This document shows, in pieces, positions 55,080 through 64,000 of a DNA stretch of 64,000 nt. This stretch comes from an uncultured Gemmatimonadales bacterium (GTDB lineage Bacteria; Gemmatimonadota; Gemmatimonadetes; Gemmatimonadales; GWC2-71-9): positions 960,001-1,024,000 of the forward strand of contig CAWCFX010000001.1 in assembly GCA_963795085.1 (NCBI GenBank), written 5' to 3'. Under the pieces are notes generated by a model that was not told the DNA's origin, ran no database searches, and worked only from the letters and a program-made list of their open reading frames with translations. A program made the translations under genes and the position numbers. Position 1 is the first letter of the stretch, and every line of letters begins with the position of its first letter.

Positions 55080-55083
<4 letters not shown>

Positions 55084-55790
55084 TGCTGCAGGTGGGCGGC
55101 GCCATTCCCTCGTCTTCGCTGGAGCTGGTACTCTCCTCCAGTGTGGAGACCAAGGTCGTGCTTGCGGTGATCGCGATCTTCTCGCTCACGGCCTGGTTCA
55201 TCATCGCCTACAAGTGGTGGCAGTTTCGCCGGGTTCGCCGCCAGGCCGACCGTTTTTTCAGCGAGATGGAGCGCGCCACCCGGCTGGAGGAGGCCTATCA
55301 CACTGTGATGCGGCTGCCGCCCTCGCCGTACAACCGGATTTTCCGGGAGGCGATGGCCTTCGTGTCCGATCTCCGGCCCCGGGGCCCCGAGGGGGGATTG
55401 GTCACCCACGGCTCAATGACGGGCACCCAGCTCGAGGCGTTCAAGATGGTGCTCGCCAAGGATATCGCCGCCGAGCGGGATGCGATGGCGCACTTTATTC
55501 CGTGGCTCGCGACCGTGGGATCGGTGGGCCCCCTGCTGGGCCTGCTGGGGACCGTGCTGGGCGTGATGGATGCCTTCATCGGCATCGCCAGCAAGGGCTC
55601 CGGCAACATCGCCGCGGTCGCCCCGGGCGTGGCCGAAGCGCTGGTGACCACGGTGGCCGGACTCGCCGCGGCTATCCCGGCGGTGATCGCCTATAACATC
55701 TTCGTCAATCGCCTCAATGTCTTCGAGGGCGAAATGGACGGCTTCGCCAACGAACTGATCGGGACCATGGCCCGGGAGGGGGTCCTCTAG
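55080..55790 (+). CDS. tolQ: TolQ/ExbB proton channel
   Basis: LATVGS.GPLLGLLGTV.G, APGVAEAL.TT..GL..AIPA. Confidence 0.85.
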
Positions 55791-55792
55791 CG

Positions 55793-56224
55793 ATGGCCGG
55801 CCCCACCGGCGCCGGGCTCCGCCGCCGCGGGCGGATTCCGCTCACGGCCGATATCAACGTCACCTCGCTGGTCGACGTCGCCTTCGTGCTGCTCATCATT
55901 TTCATGATCACTGCCCCCATGATGCAGGGCGGGGTGGACGTGCAGCTGCCCCGCGCCGAGGCCCGTCCGCTCAGCGCCAAGGAAGGGATGGTGGTGTCGG
56001 TGGACCGCGAGGGCCGCATTTTCATCGACCAGACCGAGGTGAGCTACAACGACTTCCGGCTCACCTTCAAGTCCATCGTCTCGGCCCGGAACCCCACCGG
56101 CGTGTACCTCCGCGCCGACAGCCGGGTACCCTATGGCGAGGTGGTGCGGGTGCTCGCCGTGATCCGCACCGCGGGGGTGAGCGACGTGGGCCTGGTGGCC
56201 GAGGACGAGCGGGGCGGGCCCTAG
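55793..56224 (+). CDS. tolR: TolR/ExbD
   Basis: INVTSLVDV..VLLIIFMITAP, LRAD..VPYG. Confidence 0.85.
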   Translation: MAGPTGAGLRRRGRIPLTADINVTSLVDVAFVLLIIFMITAPMMQGGVDVQLPRAEARPLSAKEGMVVSVDREGRIFIDQTEVSYNDFRLTFKSIVSARNPTGVYLRADSRVPYGEVVRVLAVIRTAGVSDVGLVAEDERGGP

Positions 56225-56232
56225 CGGGCGCC

Positions 56233-56922
56233 ATGGCGATCCGGGTCCGGGCTCACGCCAGGGGGAACGCGACGGTCGGCATCGCGGGGACGCTCCTCGT
56301 GCACGCGACCGCCGTGGGCCTCCTGGTCTTTGCCGTGAAGGCGCCCAAGGAGTTCCCGCCGGTGTACTCGGTGAACCTGGTCGCCGCGCCGGCGCCCCGG
56401 GAGGACAGCCGGCCCGCCCCGGAGGCGGTTGCCCGGCCGGTGGAAGAGCCGCCCGCGCCGTCGGTGCCGGTCGCCGAACCCGCCAGGACCGTGCCCAAGC
56501 CGGTCCCGACCCGGCCGCAGCCGGCCCAGCCGAAAGAACCGGCGCCGCGGACCCGGAGTCCCGAGCGCCCCGCACCGGGGGAGACGCCGGGCACCGGCAG
56601 CGACGCTGTGACGGTCAAGACACCGGGGCTGACTTTCCCGTACCCCGGTTATCTTGAGAACATCTACAACCAGATCTACCGCCGCTGGGAACGCCCGGTC
56701 AGTTCCAGTCTCAGCGCAGAAGTCACTTTTCTGATAATGCGGGATGGTTCGGTGCGGGATCTCCGGTTCTCCCGGTCTTCGGGGAACTTTTCATTCGACC
56801 TGAGCGCCCAGGGAGCAGTCGAGGCCGCCGGCAATACCAAGGCGTTCGGCTCGCTCCCCGATGGCTTCGAGGCAGACGTGCTATTGGTCAGTTTTTATTT
56901 TGCTCCGGCGGCTTCCCGATGA
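56233..56922 (+). CDS. TolA/TonB-like energy transducer
   Basis: TM with His, Pro-rich spacer, RDG.V...SSG...FD C-terminal domain; inside tol-pal operon. Confidence 0.75.
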   Translation: MAIRVRAHARGNATVGIAGTLLVHATAVGLLVFAVKAPKEFPPVYSVNLVAAPAPREDSRPAPEAVARPVEEPPAPSVPVAEPARTVPKPVPTRPQPAQPKEPAPRTRSPERPAPGETPGTGSDAVTVKTPGLTFPYPGYLENIYNQIYRRWERPVSSSLSAEVTFLIMRDGSVRDLRFSRSSGNFSFDLSAQGAVEAAGNTKAFGSLPDGFEADVLLVSFYFAPAASR

Positions 56923-58211
56923 GAACCATCGCGATCACCGCCCTCCTGGGTCTCCTGGCTGCGCCGCTTCTCGCGCAGGATACGCTCGGCGTTCGCCTGG
57001 GAATTACCTACGGCAGGGGAAGCCGGCCCGGACTGGTCATCCTCCCTTCCGCCGGGGTGGACTCGGTGCGGGCCATTCTGGCCCGCGATCTCGACTACAG
57101 CGACCGGTTTGAAGTCGTCGCCATTCCCGCGTCGGAAGTCGCCCGGGGCGGCGGTGGCCGGGCCGGCACCGTCAACTACGGACTCTATCGTACGCTGGGC
57201 GCGGCCTATGGCCTCGAGGTGCTGGCCGGTACCGGGGGTGGCGGGGTCCGGGTGCGGCTGCACGATCTCCAGGCCGGCTCCGTTCGCCGTGAGGAGACTA
57301 CCAACCTGCCGCCCCCCGATTCGCCGGCCTTTCGGATGATGGTCCACCGGCTGGCCGACGAAATCGTCCGCTGGATCACCGGGCTGCCCGGCATCGCGGC
57401 GACCCAGTTCGTCTTCCTGGTGGACAAACAGGTGTACCGGATGGACAGCGACGGCTACAACATGACGGCCGTGACGGGCCGCGGCGAGGAGGCGCTCTCG
57501 CCCACCTGGTCGCCCGATGGAGCCCGGGTTGCCTACACGCAGTTCGACGAGGGCCGCGGCTCCATCGTGATTGAGGACCGGGGCGGCACCAAGCGCTCGG
57601 TGCCCGGGACCGGCCGGGACCTCAACATCACCCCGGCGTTTTCGCCCGACGGGCAGTGGCTCGCCTATGCGCGGGTGGGCGAGGACGGGACCGACATTTT
57701 CAAGGTGAGCCTGGCCGGTTCGGGCGGGCCGCAACGCTTGACCGCCGGTCGCTTCGCGGATAACCTATCTCCGACCTGGTCGCCAGACGGGCGGCGGATC
57801 GGCTTCGTGTCCACCCGCTCCGGGCTGCCACAGGTGTATGTTATGGGGGCCGACGGGACGGACCAGGAGCTGCTCGCCCCGTTTGACTACGGTGTCACCG
57901 GGAGTTCCAACGCTCCGGAGTGGTCGCCGGACGGAGCCAGCCTGGTGTTTCACCGCGATGTCTCCCGTTCGCCCCAGGTTTTTGTGCTCGATATCAACAG
58001 CCGGCGGGTTCGCCAGTTGACCTCGTCCGGCCGCAATGAAGACCCGACGTGGGCCCCTGACGGGCGGCACGTGGCTTTCATCTCGGACCGAAGCGGCCGC
58101 CGCCAGCTGTGGGTCATCGACATGGAATCAGGCCGGGTGCGCCAATTGCGCACGTCGGCATCGGTGCGGTTGCCCTCGTGGTCCCGTCACCTGGACGGAC
58201 CCGTTCAATAA
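56919..58211 (+). CDS. tolB: TolB
   Basis: Signal peptide, RDLDYSDRF, HRLADEIV, repeated PxWSPDG. Confidence 0.85.
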   Translation: MRTIAITALLGLLAAPLLAQDTLGVRLGITYGRGSRPGLVILPSAGVDSVRAILARDLDYSDRFEVVAIPASEVARGGGGRAGTVNYGLYRTLGAAYGLEVLAGTGGGGVRVRLHDLQAGSVRREETTNLPPPDSPAFRMMVHRLADEIVRWITGLPGIAATQFVFLVDKQVYRMDSDGYNMTAVTGRGEEALSPTWSPDGARVAYTQFDEGRGSIVIEDRGGTKRSVPGTGRDLNITPAFSPDGQWLAYARVGEDGTDIFKVSLAGSGGPQRLTAGRFADNLSPTWSPDGRRIGFVSTRSGLPQVYVMGADGTDQELLAPFDYGVTGSSNAPEWSPDGASLVFHRDVSRSPQVFVLDINSRRVRQLTSSGRNEDPTWAPDGRHVAFISDRSGRRQLWVIDMESGRVRQLRTSASVRLPSWSRHLDGPVQ

Positions 58212-58231
58212 CCTTTTTATCAGGAGTTCCG

Positions 58232-58849
58232 ATGCGCTTTCCTTTGATGTTGGTTACGCTGGTGGTGGCCGGAGTTGTCGGCGCCGCGTGCGGTGGCAGC
58301 CAGCCGCCGGAGACCTCGACTACGCCCGCGGTAGATACCGCCGCTGCAAACGCCCGGGCCCGCGCCCGCCAGGACTCCATCGATGCGGCCAACCGCGCCC
58401 GCGCCGAAGCCGACCGTCTGGCCCGTGAAGAGGCCGAGCGCCGCGCCGCCGCCGATCGCGCCGCCCGCGACCGGCAGGCCCTGATGACCGACATGGCTGC
58501 GATGGTGCACTTCGACTATGACCGTGCCGACATTCGCTCGGACGACATGGCCAAACTTGACCGCAAGGCCGCCATCCTCAGCGCCAACACCGGTGCCCGG
58601 ATCCGGATCTCCGGCCACGCCGACGATCGCGGCTCCGATGAGTACAACCTGGCGCTGGGCAACCGCCGGGCCGCCGCCGCCAAGCGTTACCTGGTGAGCA
58701 AGGGCATCGCCGACGGCCGGATCGACATCGTGTCCTATGGCGAAGAGCGTCCCACGGCCCAGGGCACCGACGAGGCCAGCTACCAGCAGAACCGGCGGGC
58801 CGAGTTCGAGATCGTGGCGGGCGGCGATAACCTCATGGCGCCGAGATAA
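58232..58849 (+). CDS. pal: Peptidoglycan-associated lipoprotein
   Basis: GAAC lipobox; HFDYD, GHADDRGSDEYNLALG.RRA, SYGEE.P, NRRAE. Confidence 0.9.
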   Translation: MRFPLMLVTLVVAGVVGAACGGSQPPETSTTPAVDTAAANARARARQDSIDAANRARAEADRLAREEAERRAAADRAARDRQALMTDMAAMVHFDYDRADIRSDDMAKLDRKAAILSANTGARIRISGHADDRGSDEYNLALGNRRAAAAKRYLVSKGIADGRIDIVSYGEERPTAQGTDEASYQQNRRAEFEIVAGGDNLMAPR

Positions 58850-59680
58850 GTGGCCGCAATCAGGCGCAGTTCCCGAACCAACAGCAAGGCGCACCACGGT
58901 GCGCCCTTGCTGGCGCTCGGCCTCCTGGTGGTCCTGGGGGGATGTGCCCTCAAGGGCGACGTCAAGCGGGTCGAGACAGAGCTGGCGGCGTTCCGCATGG
59001 AATCCGCGGTCCAGGATTCCATTCGGGCGGCCCGGCTCAACGAAATGCTCGAATTGCAGCAGCGCCTCATGGACTCGCTGGGCTCCAGCATCGTTTCCAC
59101 CGAGCGCGCCGTCCTGGCGATCCGCGGTTCCCTGAGCCAGGACATGTACCGCATCCAGCAGCAGCTGGTGCAGGTCCAGGAGCTGACCGGGCAGAGCCAG
59201 CAGCGGCTGAGCGAGTTACGTTCCCAGCTGGAAACCCGCAGCCAGCAGGCCGCAGCGGCCCCGTCCGATTCCGCCGCCGCCCCGGTGCAGGGCTCGGGTG
59301 GCGGCCCCTCGGCCGACCAGATGTACGAGGCGTCGCTGCAGCAGCTGCGGCGGGGCAGCGTAGCCACGGCGCGAATGGGTTTCCGGCAACTGGTCCAGAG
59401 CCACCCGCAAAGCTCCCGGGTGGCTGACGCACTCTATTTTATCGGGGAGAGCTGGGCCGGCGAGTCTCCCGACTCGGCCGCGCGGTATTACGAGCAGGTG
59501 GTGACGACTTACCCCACATCTACCCGGGCCCCCGGTTCACTGTACAAGCTGGGGCTCCTGGCGGAGCGCCGCCGCGATATCGCCGCCGCCCGGGCCTACT
59601 TCACCCGGGTTGCCCGGGATTATCCACGGTCCGAAGAAGCCGCCCTGGTCCCTGACAAGCTGAAGGCGCTCGGGCAGTAA
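58850..59680 (+). CDS. cpoB: CpoB/YbgF-like tol-pal protein (lipoprotein-type signal)
   Basis: LGGC, coiled coil, TPR (ALYFIGES, YP.S); after pal; start uncertain. Confidence 0.75.
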   Translation: MAAIRRSSRTNSKAHHGAPLLALGLLVVLGGCALKGDVKRVETELAAFRMESAVQDSIRAARLNEMLELQQRLMDSLGSSIVSTERAVLAIRGSLSQDMYRIQQQLVQVQELTGQSQQRLSELRSQLETRSQQAAAAPSDSAAAPVQGSGGGPSADQMYEASLQQLRRGSVATARMGFRQLVQSHPQSSRVADALYFIGESWAGESPDSAARYYEQVVTTYPTSTRAPGSLYKLGLLAERRRDIAAARAYFTRVARDYPRSEEAALVPDKLKALGQ

Positions 59681-59698: not shown

Positions 59699-62600
59699 AT
59701 GGCCCGCGCCAATGGAGAGATGCCGTTCCTCGATCATCTCGAGGAACTGCGGATGCGGATTCTCAAGTCCGCCGGCGCGCTGGTGCTCGGCATGGCCGTT
59801 GGCCTCTTCGTGGTGGAGCGGTTTCAGCTGATCGTCCTGCTGAAACGCCCCATCGAGCCCTACCTGCCCGCCGGGGGCAAGCTGATCGTGACCGGCCCGA
59901 CCGAGCCGGTCATGATCGTCCTCAAGCTCGGATTCACCGTCGGGCTGGTTCTCGCCTCCCCGGTGCTCATCTACCAGCTGTGGGCCTTCCTTTCTCCGGC
60001 CCTCTACGCCCGGGAAAAGAAAGCCCTGGTCCCCGGGCTGCTGATCGGCCTCCTGCTGTTCATGGCGGGCGGGGCGCTGGGCTTCCTGTATATCGTGCCC
60101 CAGGCTCTCCGGGTGCTCTTCAGCTTCCAGTCGGAAGCGCTGGCCCCGTTCATCACCTACGACAAGTATTTCAGCTTCCTGCTCCAGGTGGTGCTGGCGA
60201 TGGGGATCTCGTTCGAGCTCCCCCTGGTCATCATCCTGCTGTCGATTTTCGGGTTGCTCACGCCGGCCGCGCTGCACCGGTTCCGCCGCTTCGCGATCGT
60301 GCTCGCCTGCATCGCAGGCGCGGTGCTTTCGCCCGGAGCAGACGTCATTTCCATGGTGATGATGACGGTCCCCCTGATCTTTCTGTACGAGGTGGGCGTC
60401 GCCGGGTCTTCAATCGTGTACCGGCGCAAGAAGCGGCGGGAGGCGCGGGCGGCCTCGGCGGCCGCGCTGCTCTTTTTCCTCTTCGCCGGAGTGGGAGCGG
60501 TATCGGCCCAGGAGCCGGTGCGGCCCCGGCCCGATTCACTCCGCCCGGCGATCCCCCGGGACAGCCTGCTTCGGGCGCGCCCCGACACGGGTCGCCGCCC
60601 CCGGGCCGGGAGCCAGCTGGACACCGCGACGGCCGCGCGCCTGGGGCTGCCGACCGCGCCCACCCGGAGTTTTCCCGCCCCCGACTCCATCATGGAGGCC
60701 CTCCTGGCGCGGCCCGGATTCCAGGCAGTGCGCTATCGGGCCGACTCCGCGACCCTGTATGCCGAGGAGCGGCGGATCCAGCTGCGCCGGGACGCGCTGA
60801 CTCAGCGGGGGCAGTCGGTGATGGAAGCCGACAGCGCCATCACCTACGACGACTCCGAGTGCATGATGACCGCCGGCGGCAATCCCCGCCTGTTCGACGG
60901 CGGGTCGGTGGTGGTCTCGAAACACATCTCCTACAATCACTGCATCCGGCGGGCCGTCATCGCCGACGCGCTGACCAATTTCCAGGAGGGATCCACCACC
61001 TGGTTCCTCCGGGGCACCCTGGCCCAGGACTCCAGCTCCAGCCGGCTCTACGCGCATTCCGGAGAGATCACCAGCTGTGATCTGCCGAATCCCCACTATC
61101 ATTTCTCGGCCCGGCAGGTGAAATGGATCTCCAAGACCGTGCTGGTCGCCCGGCCCGCGGTGCTCTACGTGCGCGATGTCCCCATCCTGTGGCTTCCGTT
61201 CATTTTCCAGGATGCCCGGCCGGGGCGGCGGTCCGGCATCCTGGTGCCCCAGTTCGGGATCAACGACATCGTGCGTCCCAATGGAGGCTATAACCGGCAG
61301 GTGACCAACGTGGGCTACTACTGGGCGCCCAACGAGTACTTCGACCTGACCGCCCGGCTCGACTGGTACGCCAATCGCTACACCCAGTATGGCATCGCGG
61401 GTCAGTACCGGTGGCTGAACCGGTTCGTCACCGGCAACCTCGCGTACAACCGCACCTCGGAGAACACCGGGCAGCGCTCCACCAACGTCCGCTGGGACCA
61501 CCGGCAGAGCTTCAACCTCAACACCACGCTCAATTTCAACCTGAACTATGCCAGCAACTCCAGCGTTATCCGGCGCAACGCGATCGACCCGCTCCTGTCC
61601 ACCCAGAACATCACCAGCGCGCTCAACTTCACCCGCCGCTTCGGCTGGGGGTCGCTGACCCTGGGCGGCAACCGGCGGCAGAGCCTCACCGACCGGAGCG
61701 TGACCCAGCAGTTCCCCGCGCTCACCATCAACCCCAAGCCCCTGGATCTGTCCCGGAACCTCACCTGGTCTCCCTCGGTGAGCTTCACCCGGGACGAGAG
61801 CCGCAATACCCCGCGAGGTTTCTTCGTGGTCGCCAATGCGCTGGGCGGGCTGGACTCGGTGGCGGCCACCGAGGATACCCGGCTGACCGCGTTCAACCTG
61901 GACACGCCGCTCCGGTTCTGGGGGTTCAACTGGCGCAACTCCGTCCGGATGACCGACCGGCTGGTGCAGGGCCGTCAGGCGGTGACCTTCCGGGAGGAGA
62001 ACACGGCTACGCCGGAGCCGGGGGACTCGGTGAACGTGACCCGGGTGTTCAGCGGAGATTTCTCGACCGGGGTAGACTGGAATACCGGCATCAATCTGCC
62101 GACACTGGCCCGCTCCACCTTCAAGCTGCAACCCACGCTGGGCATCGACAATATCGTGACCGGGCAGCCCTTTCTCCTCCGCAACCGCAACACCGGCGGC
62201 GACTACGTGGTGCAGGGCAAGCGGTTCGCGCTGTCGATGAGCGCGGCACCCACCGTGTTTGGCTTTTATCCCGGCGTCGGGCCGCTGGCCCGGATCCGTC
62301 ACAGCCTGTCGCCGGTCTTCAACTGGACCTACCGGCCCGCCGCCGAGATCCCGGCCGAGTTCGCCCGGGCCATCCAGCAACCGGGCCGGCCCATCGAATT
62401 GCGCAGCGATCCCAACCAGACGGCCAGCATCAGCCTGTCCCAGTCCTTCGAAGCCAAGGCGCGGCAGGCCCCCGGCGATACGACCGATCCGCAGAATGTC
62501 CGGAAGTACCGGCTGTTGAGCATCTCGACCAGCCAGCTGGCCTACGATTTCGAGCAAGCCAAGAAACCGGGCCGTACCGGGTGGATCACCCCTAGCATTT

Positions 62601-63247
62601 CGAACACCTTCCAGAGCGACCTGCTCCCCGGGTTCAACCTGTCGATGTCCCATGACCTGTGGCGGGGGGCGGTAGGGACCGACACGGCGGAGTTCGACCC
62701 GTTTCTCTCCAGTGTGAGCGCCGGGTTCGCGGTTTCAGGGAATACTTTCCGGACCCTCCTGTCGTTCGTCGGCCTGGCCCGGCGGCCGGAGCCCGCCGCG
62801 GCAGCCGCCGGGCAGCGTCCCGCCCAGCCGACCTCCTACGTCGCGGACGTGGGCCGCCGGCGGGGCGGCAGCAGTTTCTACAATACGGACCAGTACGCGG
62901 TGGGGATGGGGCGGGCGTTCACCGCCAACTTCAACTACTCGCTCTCCCGGGCCCGGCCCACCCCGGGCGATGGGATCGCCGATATCGAGCCGCGGCAGAA
63001 CCTCGGTTTCAGCACCAGTTTCTCGCCCACCCCGCTCTGGTCGCTCTCCTGGACCGCCCAGTACAACATCACCGACCGGCAGTTTGAGTCCCACGTGGTC
63101 CGCCTGGAGCGGGACATGCACGAATGGAAGGCCAGTTTCAACGCCATCAAGAACGCCAACGGCAACTTCCAGTTCTTCTTCAGTATCTACCTGAGCGACC
63201 TCCCGGAAGTGAAATTCGACTACGACCAGACCACCATCGAGCGCTAG
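59699..63247 (+). CDS. tatC: TatC fused in-frame to LptD-like outer-membrane protein
   Basis: aa 1-241 TatC (MPFLDHLEELR.R, YQLWAFLSPAL, FELP, LYEVG); aa 242-270 signal-peptide-like; then LptD-like (TSCDLPNPHY, LPFIF, R.SG.L.P, GYYW, RDMHEW...PEVKFDY). Confidence 0.85.
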   Translation: MARANGEMPFLDHLEELRMRILKSAGALVLGMAVGLFVVERFQLIVLLKRPIEPYLPAGGKLIVTGPTEPVMIVLKLGFTVGLVLASPVLIYQLWAFLSPALYAREKKALVPGLLIGLLLFMAGGALGFLYIVPQALRVLFSFQSEALAPFITYDKYFSFLLQVVLAMGISFELPLVIILLSIFGLLTPAALHRFRRFAIVLACIAGAVLSPGADVISMVMMTVPLIFLYEVGVAGSSIVYRRKKRREARAASAAALLFFLFAGVGAVSAQEPVRPRPDSLRPAIPRDSLLRARPDTGRRPRAGSQLDTATAARLGLPTAPTRSFPAPDSIMEALLARPGFQAVRYRADSATLYAEERRIQLRRDALTQRGQSVMEADSAITYDDSECMMTAGGNPRLFDGGSVVVSKHISYNHCIRRAVIADALTNFQEGSTTWFLRGTLAQDSSSSRLYAHSGEITSCDLPNPHYHFSARQVKWISKTVLVARPAVLYVRDVPILWLPFIFQDARPGRRSGILVPQFGINDIVRPNGGYNRQVTNVGYYWAPNEYFDLTARLDWYANRYTQYGIAGQYRWLNRFVTGNLAYNRTSENTGQRSTNVRWDHRQSFNLNTTLNFNLNYASNSSVIRRNAIDPLLSTQNITSALNFTRRFGWGSLTLGGNRRQSLTDRSVTQQFPALTINPKPLDLSRNLTWSPSVSFTRDESRNTPRGFFVVANALGGLDSVAATEDTRLTAFNLDTPLRFWGFNWRNSVRMTDRLVQGRQAVTFREENTATPEPGDSVNVTRVFSGDFSTGVDWNTGINLPTLARSTFKLQPTLGIDNIVTGQPFLLRNRNTGGDYVVQGKRFALSMSAAPTVFGFYPGVGPLARIRHSLSPVFNWTYRPAAEIPAEFARAIQQPGRPIELRSDPNQTASISLSQSFEAKARQAPGDTTDPQNVRKYRLLSISTSQLAYDFEQAKKPGRTGWITPSISNTFQSDLLPGFNLSMSHDLWRGAVGTDTAEFDPFLSSVSAGFAVSGNTFRTLLSFVGLARRPEPAAAAAGQRPAQPTSYVADVGRRRGGSSFYNTDQYAVGMGRAFTANFNYSLSRARPTPGDGIADIEPRQNLGFSTSFSPTPLWSLSWTAQYNITDRQFESHVVRLERDMHEWKASFNAIKNANGNFQFFFSIYLSDLPEVKFDYDQTTIER

Positions 63248-63400: not shown

Positions 63401-64000
63401 ATGCGAGTCGCGATGTCGGCGGTCCTGTTGAGTGTGTTGTCCCTCGGCTGCCAGGACGAGTTCCTCGGCGGCGGCTCCCTGCTGAACCCCCCGACCAACC
63501 TTACGTACAAGGTCGAACCCAGCGGCACTCCAGGAAGCCCTTCCGGGGTCCTGCTGCAATGGGATTTCAGCACCGATCCGGCCATCGCGGTGTGGCGGGT
63601 GTACTCGCGGGGAAGCAGCTCCGGGTCCTTCCGGCTCCGCGGGTCCACCACCTCCAACACCTATCATGACAACGGCATACCCCACCTCCAGTATTACGTG
63701 ACCGCGGAGGACGATGCCGGGTACGAGAGCGATCCCAGCAACGCGGTGACAGTGGACGAGCGGCTGGCCCTGGACGCGCCCCTGGCCCTGACCACCACGT
63801 CGCTCGACCAGGCCATCGCGCTCAGCTGGACCGACAACGCCTACACCTCCGAACCGCAGGGATTCTCGATTTACCGGATATACAGCACCGCCTATGACCT
63901 GGACCTGGGACTGTGCGGCGCGACCTGGTCGCTGGAAGGCACCACGGTAGCCCCCGAGTACATCGCCGGCGCGCTGACCAATGGCGCGCCCCGCTGCTTC
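63401..64000 (+). CDS. Lipoprotein with fibronectin type III-like domains, 3'-truncated
   Basis: Not in ORF track; my translation MRVAMSAVLLSVLSLGC..., PPTNL...LQWD...YYVTAED.AG.ES..SN; frame open to window end. Confidence 0.7.
   Translation, partial: MRVAMSAVLLSVLSLGCQDEFLGGGSLLNPPTNLTYKVEPSGTPGSPSGVLLQWDFSTDPAIAVWRVYSRGSSSGSFRLRGSTTSNTYHDNGIPHLQYYVTAEDDAGYESDPSNAVTVDERLALDAPLALTTTSLDQAIALSWTDNAYTSEPQGFSIYRIYSTAYDLDLGLCGATWSLEGTTVAPEYIAGALTNGAPRCF

Follow-up and report, generated by a model that had tools for sequence, protein, structure and literature searches.

A TatC-LptD fusion joined by an internal signal peptide in an uncultured family of Gemmatimonadales, most likely cut into two proteins

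The window analyzed here is a stretch of 64,000 nucleotides from contig CAWCFX010000001.1 of an uncultured Gemmatimonadales bacterium. On its forward strand, one open reading frame (ORF) of 1182 codons plus a stop (59699..63247) encodes TatC, the polytopic component of the twin-arginine translocation (Tat) system, followed by an LptD-like protein; LptD inserts lipopolysaccharide at the outer membrane. Judging from its sequence, the product of this fused gene is most likely cut at an internal signal peptide into two normal proteins, TatC and LptD. The source genome (G000), from an uncultured soil bacterium, is a metagenome-type assembly of 3.89 Mb in 6 contigs, 93% complete, and a whole-genome profile search found in it one tatC gene and one LptD candidate, both inside the fused ORF. 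A first-pass annotation of this DNA had described a single ORF of 1182 residues without a stop after TatC, with a TatC and an LptD domain; the ORF list and its translation confirmed the frame, and both domains were recovered by family profiles, as detailed below.

The N-terminal part of the product is TatC by all the tests run. The Pfam family PF00902 matched residues 12-225 with an E-value of 2.5e-58 and 197.8 bits (cut-off 25.1), covering profile positions 1-208 of 208, and the NCBIfam model tatC (TIGR00945) reached 191.1 bits against a cut-off of 132.7. The solved TatC chains 4htt, 4b4a, and 4hts were matched by profile search at E-values from 7e-68 to 7e-64. A simple hydropathy scan placed six hydrophobic segments before residue 240 and a seventh at residues 249-271, with six K/R among the eight residues of the loop 241-248. 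From the solved structures, the N and C termini of TatC are both cytoplasmic.

The C-terminal part belongs, by profile match, to the Pfam family LptD_2, and G000, which has the genes for lipopolysaccharide (LPS) synthesis and transport LpxC and LptF/LptG, contains no other LptD candidate. PF19838 (LptD_2) matched residues 483-679 (61145-61735) and a second stretch, with an E-value of 1.2e-36 and 126.9 bits (cut-off 22.5). LptD_2 is a Bacteroides-type family: among the control genomes, it was matched only in B. thetaiotaomicron. The canonical LptD family, PF04453, had no match anywhere in G000, and the NCBIfam LptD equivalogs NF003358 and NF002997 stayed at 25 bits, below their cut-offs of 944 and 683; thus, the LptD part is of the LptD_2 type and not of the E. 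coli-type family. The LptA-like jellyroll PF03968 was also below threshold (E-value 0.3, 11.8 bits, cut-off 20.4). Among solved structures, a phmmer search with the LptD part alone gave nothing meaningful, and only the profile built from 47 fusions reached LptD, with weak matches to 8h1r (E-value 8.4e-5, query residues 339-512) and 7omm (2.2e-4). In a language-model look-alike search, the LptD part was placed beside Gemmatimonadota "LptD family" clusters at 0.99, which we take as a lead only.

The fusion is real, ancient, and evolutionarily stable, and it is not an assembly error. Our phylum survey covered 401 genomes and listed 150 matches, each from a different genome of the uncultured Gemmatimonadales family of the window (f1, sampled with 166 genomes including that of the window). 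The fusion was found in 139 of these 150 listed genomes, with LptD identity down to 45%: 128 matches cover the query from end to end and 11 span the joint and are cut by a contig end or by the alignment, while the remaining 11 contain LptD alone. Two of the 139 genomes (G083 and G202) are flagged as unpublished, and the proportion without them is 137/148. Five full-length matches were flagged with one TAG codon, which was the terminal stop in all five. Among 40 relatives, we fetched 25 loci containing both parts, and 17 of them have a single frame from TatC to the end of LptD. The protein database returned 1556 relatives at an E-value of 1e-3; all 120 listed carry both PF00902 and PF19838 and measure 1058-1193 residues. 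Long TatC homologs with the conserved linker, which the first-pass annotation suggested looking for, are therefore abundant (1150-1200 residues), and no relative has a stop or indel that would expose the frame of the window as artefactual.

A stop codon lost, or an indel introduced, during assembly, binning, or sequencing of a metagenome-assembled genome (MAG) would be another explanation, and two features invite it: G000 itself was assembled from metagenome-type data, into 6 contigs, and some long-read relatives are visibly frameshifted. The public records for 77 loci, without exception MAGs assigned to uncultured Gemmatimonadales or Gemmatimonadota, come, however, from many projects, and the same open frame recurs in well over a hundred independent assemblies at identities down to 45%. 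A frame kept open across the joint in so many independent assemblies is beyond chance or error, and we consider an artefact refuted, with a negligible residual probability. From four public metagenome DNA runs, only short contig pieces mapped, without reported indels and without any piece reaching across 60400-60520. Separately, the long-read MAGs behind loci L045, L077, L080, L098, and L099 have multiple frameshifts scattered over both the TatC and the LptD parts; sequencing errors probably account for these indels, and the genes are probably not truly split. Searching titles and abstracts, we found no description of a TatC-LptD fusion, which is widespread and apparently undescribed.

The joint between the two parts has the organization of a signal peptide. 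The elements proposed by the first-pass annotation, that is, the basic cluster RRKKRREAR, a hydrophobic h-region, and a signal peptidase I (SPase I) site V268-S269-A270/Q271 (the slash marks the predicted cut), were read from the DNA exactly where it had placed them, with the site encoded at 60500-60511 (gta tcg gcc / cag). To compare joints among relatives, we gathered 195 different fused proteins, which contain 183 distinct joints, and took, in each joint, the first pair of a small residue and Gln close to where the hydrophobic stretch ends. Such a pair ends the stretch in 183/183 joints. The -1 residue is A in 158, G in 15, and S in 10; the -3 residue is A in 113, L in 29, V in 13, T in 10, G in 8, S in 5, and I in 2 (together 180/183), while P, F, and M each occur once. 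The median net charge of the n-region is +5 (range 3-7), the h-region and c-region together, up to -1, have a median length of 21 residues (range 13-27), and a helix breaker, P or G, is found at -7..-3 in 168/183 joints.

In the MAFFT alignment of 47 fusions, Q271 is the sole invariant column between E231 and D308, and R242 and R243 are nearly invariant. Conservation is lowest in the h-region, the c-region, and the tail that follows it, with top-residue fractions of 0.40, 0.49, and 0.40, compared with 0.75 for TatC and 0.68 for LptD; the h-region varies in sequence and is always hydrophobic. Downstream of the predicted site, 40-76 residues (median 58, over the 183 distinct joints) separate the +1 residue from the LptD homology. 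A conserved motif, QLDTATAARLGLPTAPTRSFPAPD, connects the variable tail to the LptD body and is shared by fused and stand-alone LptD throughout the order; its top-residue fraction is 0.79, and D308, R314, G316, P318, P321, and D329 are invariant among the 47 aligned fusions. Possibly, a periplasmic Lpt partner docks at this motif.

The origin of the joint can be read from relatives in which the two genes are separate. In other Gemmatimonadota (a second family, f2, a third, f3, and more distant ones), the same two proteins are encoded in the same order, on the same strand, and in the same ybgF-tatC-lptD neighborhood; as a rule across the phylum (five of five distant genomes, from five other families), tatC immediately precedes a co-oriented lptD. 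In split relatives, the same basic cluster follows helix 6 of TatC, which then ends in a tail that is acidic and rich in Ala; lptD begins at a start codon of its own, and its product has a signal peptide ending in A/Q, the same Pro/Arg-rich tail, and the motif LDTATARRLGLPxxPxRxF. Conversely, in the fused genes of the family of the window, TatC lacks its acidic tail and its stop, lptD lacks its start, and the basic cluster abuts the hydrophobic stretch. The homology between the joint and the signal peptide of stand-alone LptD, together with the loss of tail, stop, and start, indicates that the linker is LptD's own signal peptide, in which the positive-inside cluster of TatC doubles as the n-region. 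The cleavable, Sec-type linker predicted by the first-pass annotation is supported by these data, all the features of a signal peptide being kept.

Fused and split states have alternated during the evolution of these genomes. On an LptD tree of 43 rows (quick LG+G4 inference, midpoint-rooted for drawing only, with one row, L025, from the unpublished genome G018), we counted at least five changes between the fused and the adjacent-but-split state over the 38 rows of known state. Within the family of the window, the split forms of G005, G014, and L106/L109 are nested among fused ones. In the second family, three genomes are fused, and the fusions of two of them, G035 and G247, keep both the acidic tail of TatC and the complete signal peptide of LptD (...RSLYMLVVAALLVPGARVFG/QVP). 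This joint is built differently, which indicates an independent fusion. That the fusion has come and gone repeatedly while the signal peptide always stayed intact would be expected if the fused and the split genes give the same two mature proteins. The Gemmatimonadaceae-like genome G035 also has, in addition to its fusion (L113, G035:C6:68665-71994), a second, stand-alone tatC (L120, G035:C2:141617-142539) directly followed by a tatA.

The Gln at +1 is not peculiar to the joint. In a survey of 2517 coding-like ORFs of G000, we identified 573 signal-like N-termini, 117 of them lipoprotein-like. Among the 429 signal-like N-termini with candidate small-x-small sites, 188 have such a site followed by Gln, compared with 90 of 1068 interior hydrophobic segments treated by the same rules. 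Gln is the commonest +1 residue (14.3%, against a background of 3.3%), and after small-x-small elsewhere its frequency is 3.1%. Gln directly after predicted SPase I sites is thus a general habit of this genome, and the internal site of the fusion looks like the ordinary SPase I sites of the organism. The TolB protein encoded in the window (56919-58211) has a signal peptide ending in ...APLLA/QDT. A Q-rule for SPase I substrates, with Gln right after the cleavage site, was described for Bacteroidetes (Bochtler et al. 2018, PMC5837995); it was presented as specific to that group, and the main text of the article does not mention Gemmatimonadota. The likeness lies in the +1 Gln, found here at an internal site and genome-wide in a Gemmatimonadales genome. 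In G000, we found no match to Glu_cyclase_2 (PF05096), a search that did not extend to the type II cyclase.

On these bases, we propose that the LptD part is exported by Sec and then released by SPase I, giving a seven-helix TatC and a free LptD; we give this reading a probability of about 75%. Following the loss of the tatC stop, the acidic tail, and the lptD start, ribosomes would read from TatC straight into the LptD precursor. The six TatC helices would insert co-translationally, leaving the basic cluster in the cytoplasm; since TatC ends in the cytoplasm after helix 6, the RRKKRR cluster could serve as the n-region of the LptD signal peptide. The hydrophobic stretch would then insert N-in/C-out as a seventh helix and reopen the Sec channel for the 912-residue LptD part. 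SPase I, for which G000 has a single gene (PF10502, 154.8 bits, G000:C4:317186-317776), would cut after A270, freeing LptD from Gln271 onward for chaperone-assisted assembly into the outer membrane by the barrel assembly machinery (BAM), and a TatC of 270 residues would keep the spent signal peptide as helix 7. The fusion and its conservation are observed directly, as are the homology of the joint and the pattern at the site; export through Sec, cutting at the site, and what becomes of helix 7 are inferred from them. A possible benefit would be that the ribosome is at the translocon before it begins the very large, aggregation-prone barrel precursor, which would be produced in fixed proportion to TatC.

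A few points weigh against this proposal. In the census of joints, the +1 residue is Gln by construction, a caveat that the invariance of Q271 in the independent MAFFT alignment removes, and a few picks fall upstream of the aligned A/Q. The joints come from related genomes, so their counts represent non-independent events, the site was located by simple rules and alignment, and the cleavage is deduced for organisms that are uncultured. Moreover, in 60 of the 67 joints with DNA, an in-frame ATG, GTG, or TTG lies before the h-region and would leave a positive n-region, which makes a separate initiation of LptD possible. The fusion could then be genuine while most LptD comes from an internal start shortly ahead of the basic cluster (the GTG of V240 in the window), the fused protein being a minor or tolerated by-product. 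The window has two such GTG codons, 10 and 2 codons ahead of R242; the lack of a Shine-Dalgarno motif is weak evidence against such a start, since the start of tatC itself has none. On the other hand, the candidate starts are mostly ordinary GTG valine codons within helix 6, an ATG is present in only 4/67 joints and a Shine-Dalgarno-like motif in 10/67, and no start position is conserved in the alignment. As there is no stop codon, all ribosomes starting at tatC make the fused chain, and processing would be needed anyway. We therefore regard internal initiation as an unlikely main source of LptD.

The other two alternatives concern the fate of the fused chain. If the signal peptide were left uncut, a single chain would reach across both membranes, with TatC in the inner one, the LptD barrel in the outer one, and a flexible tether of 40-76 residues between them; beyond the site, the chain continues as a long tail of low complexity that is rich in Pro and Arg, and by our own estimate this tail could span a periplasm when extended. 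The same tail and A/Q site, however, are present in the stand-alone LptD of sister lineages, and so they are not adaptations to tethering. In addition, the pattern at -1, -3, and +1 is kept while its flanks drift, and each of the repeated switches between fused and split genes would have to create or abolish a tether. We find an intact tether improbable, and with equal reserve we mention that an uncut or partly cut chain would tie the Tat translocon physically to the place where LPS is inserted, or that helix 7 might alter the binding of TatC to TatA. Even less credible is that the arginine pair of the linker directs the LptD part through Tat itself. The Tat consensus is S/T-R-R-x-F-L-K, and the linker reads V-Y-R-R-K-K-R-R-E-A-R, with K-K-R-R-E after the pair instead of x-F-L-K, in agreement with the statement of the first-pass annotation that it is not a canonical Tat motif. 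The same cluster follows helix 6 of stand-alone TatC, where it is merely a positive-inside signal, and the stand-alone LptD signal peptides of relatives often have a single R or no pair. Tat carries folded proteins, whereas outer membrane barrels must reach BAM unfolded. In favor of self-export are the near invariance of R242-R243 and the existence of internal Tat signals in polytopic proteins, for example the actinobacterial Rieske protein (PMC3471235).

The features of the fused gene and of its neighborhood are collected in Table 1. Upstream, the run tolQ-tolR-tolA-like-tolB-pal-ybgF occupies 55080..59680 on the forward strand and is closed by the fused gene, so that the position at the end of a tol-pal run, already noted in the first-pass annotation, is borne out by the Pfam matches. 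Among relatives, tatC is immediately preceded by a ybgF-like gene in 83/84 loci, the exception being a second tatC copy. Directly downstream, an ORF at 63401-64000 (forward strand) runs off the window; it has a lipoprotein-like start (LSVLSLGC/QDEF), and the 199 residues inside the window have no Pfam match. The genome contains one gene of the TatA/B family (PF02416), at G000:C1:1030107-1030253, about 6.9 kb downstream of the fusion and beyond the window. In many relatives, tatA is likewise on the contig of the fusion, roughly 7-10 kb from it. We also considered helix 7 as a replacement for a TatB-like partner. TatA/B-family copies are mostly one in the fused genomes of f1, and one in 8/8 split genomes of f3; a copy number that is alike in fused and split lineages gives no support to this role.

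Table 1. Features of the fused tatC-lptD gene and of the upstream genes in the window (TM, transmembrane)
Feature	Position	Strand	Basis
Fused tatC-lptD ORF	59699..63247	+	ORF list; sole TatC and sole LptD_2 locus of the genome
TatC domain, six TM helices	59720..60418 (residues 8-240)	+	PF00902, TIGR00945, solved structures, hydropathy
Basic cluster R242-R250 (RRKKRREAR)	60422..60448	+	TatC cytoplasmic cluster after TM6, also n-region
h-region A251-G266 (AASAAALLFFLFAGVG), predicted seventh helix	60449..60496	+	Hydropathy segment 249-271
c-region and predicted SPase I site A267-V268-S269-A270/Q271	60497..60511	+	Alignment, joint census
N-terminal tail of predicted mature LptD, R/A/P/Q/T-rich, length-variable	60512..60616 (residues 272-306)	+	
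Conserved motif QLDTATAARLGLPTAPTRSFPAPD before the LptD body	60617..60688 (residues 307-330)	+	Alignment
LptD-like body, presumed jellyroll then beta-barrel	60689..63244 (residues 331-1182)	+	PF19838, weak structure-profile matches
tolQ	55080-55790	+	Pfam
tolR	55793-56224	+	Pfam
tolA-like	56233-56922	+	Pfam
tolB	56919-58211	+	Pfam
pal	ORF 58109-58849; likely start ~58232, judged from the lipobox	+	Pfam
ybgF/cpoB-like	58850-59680	+	Pfam

A bacterial precedent for such an arrangement may be FbcH of Bradyrhizobium japonicum, a precursor of cytochrome b and cytochrome c1 that is reportedly split at an internal signal peptide (work of Thony-Meyer, Hennecke, and co-workers, from about 1989-1991). 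One ORF is reported to encode a polytopic inner membrane protein, an internal signal peptide, and an exported protein, and a signal-peptidase-type processing to yield the two products; this would be the closest known mechanistic precedent. There is no sequence relation between the two systems, and they differ in the destination of their products: both FbcH products join the same inner membrane complex, whereas TatC and LptD would work in different machines and membranes, the second being an outer membrane barrel of roughly 900 residues. Flavivirus polyproteins also resemble the fusion: hydrophobic signals that follow membrane segments inside the chain set translocation going again, and the host signal peptidase cleaves them on the opposite face of the membrane (see PMC11637433). 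There, viral proteins undergo many cleavages in a eukaryotic endoplasmic reticulum system, and the analogy is mechanistic only.

In the listed database relatives, where the source gives a name, this is "TatC" only. With proteins of about 1170 residues recorded in this way, LptD looks absent from hundreds of Gemmatimonadales genomes. If the proposed processing is correct, the end products are likely two ordinary proteins, and the biological consequence for the cell may be small. The family would nonetheless offer a natural bacterial polyprotein, conserved family-wide, whose halves end in different membranes after separation by the host signal peptidase. It would be a test case for how SecYEG and SecA resume translocation when six helices have been inserted and a very large domain follows, for whether a membrane-docked ribosome aids the export of an aggregation-prone barrel precursor, and for the fate of a signal peptide that is held on TatC and unable to diffuse away.

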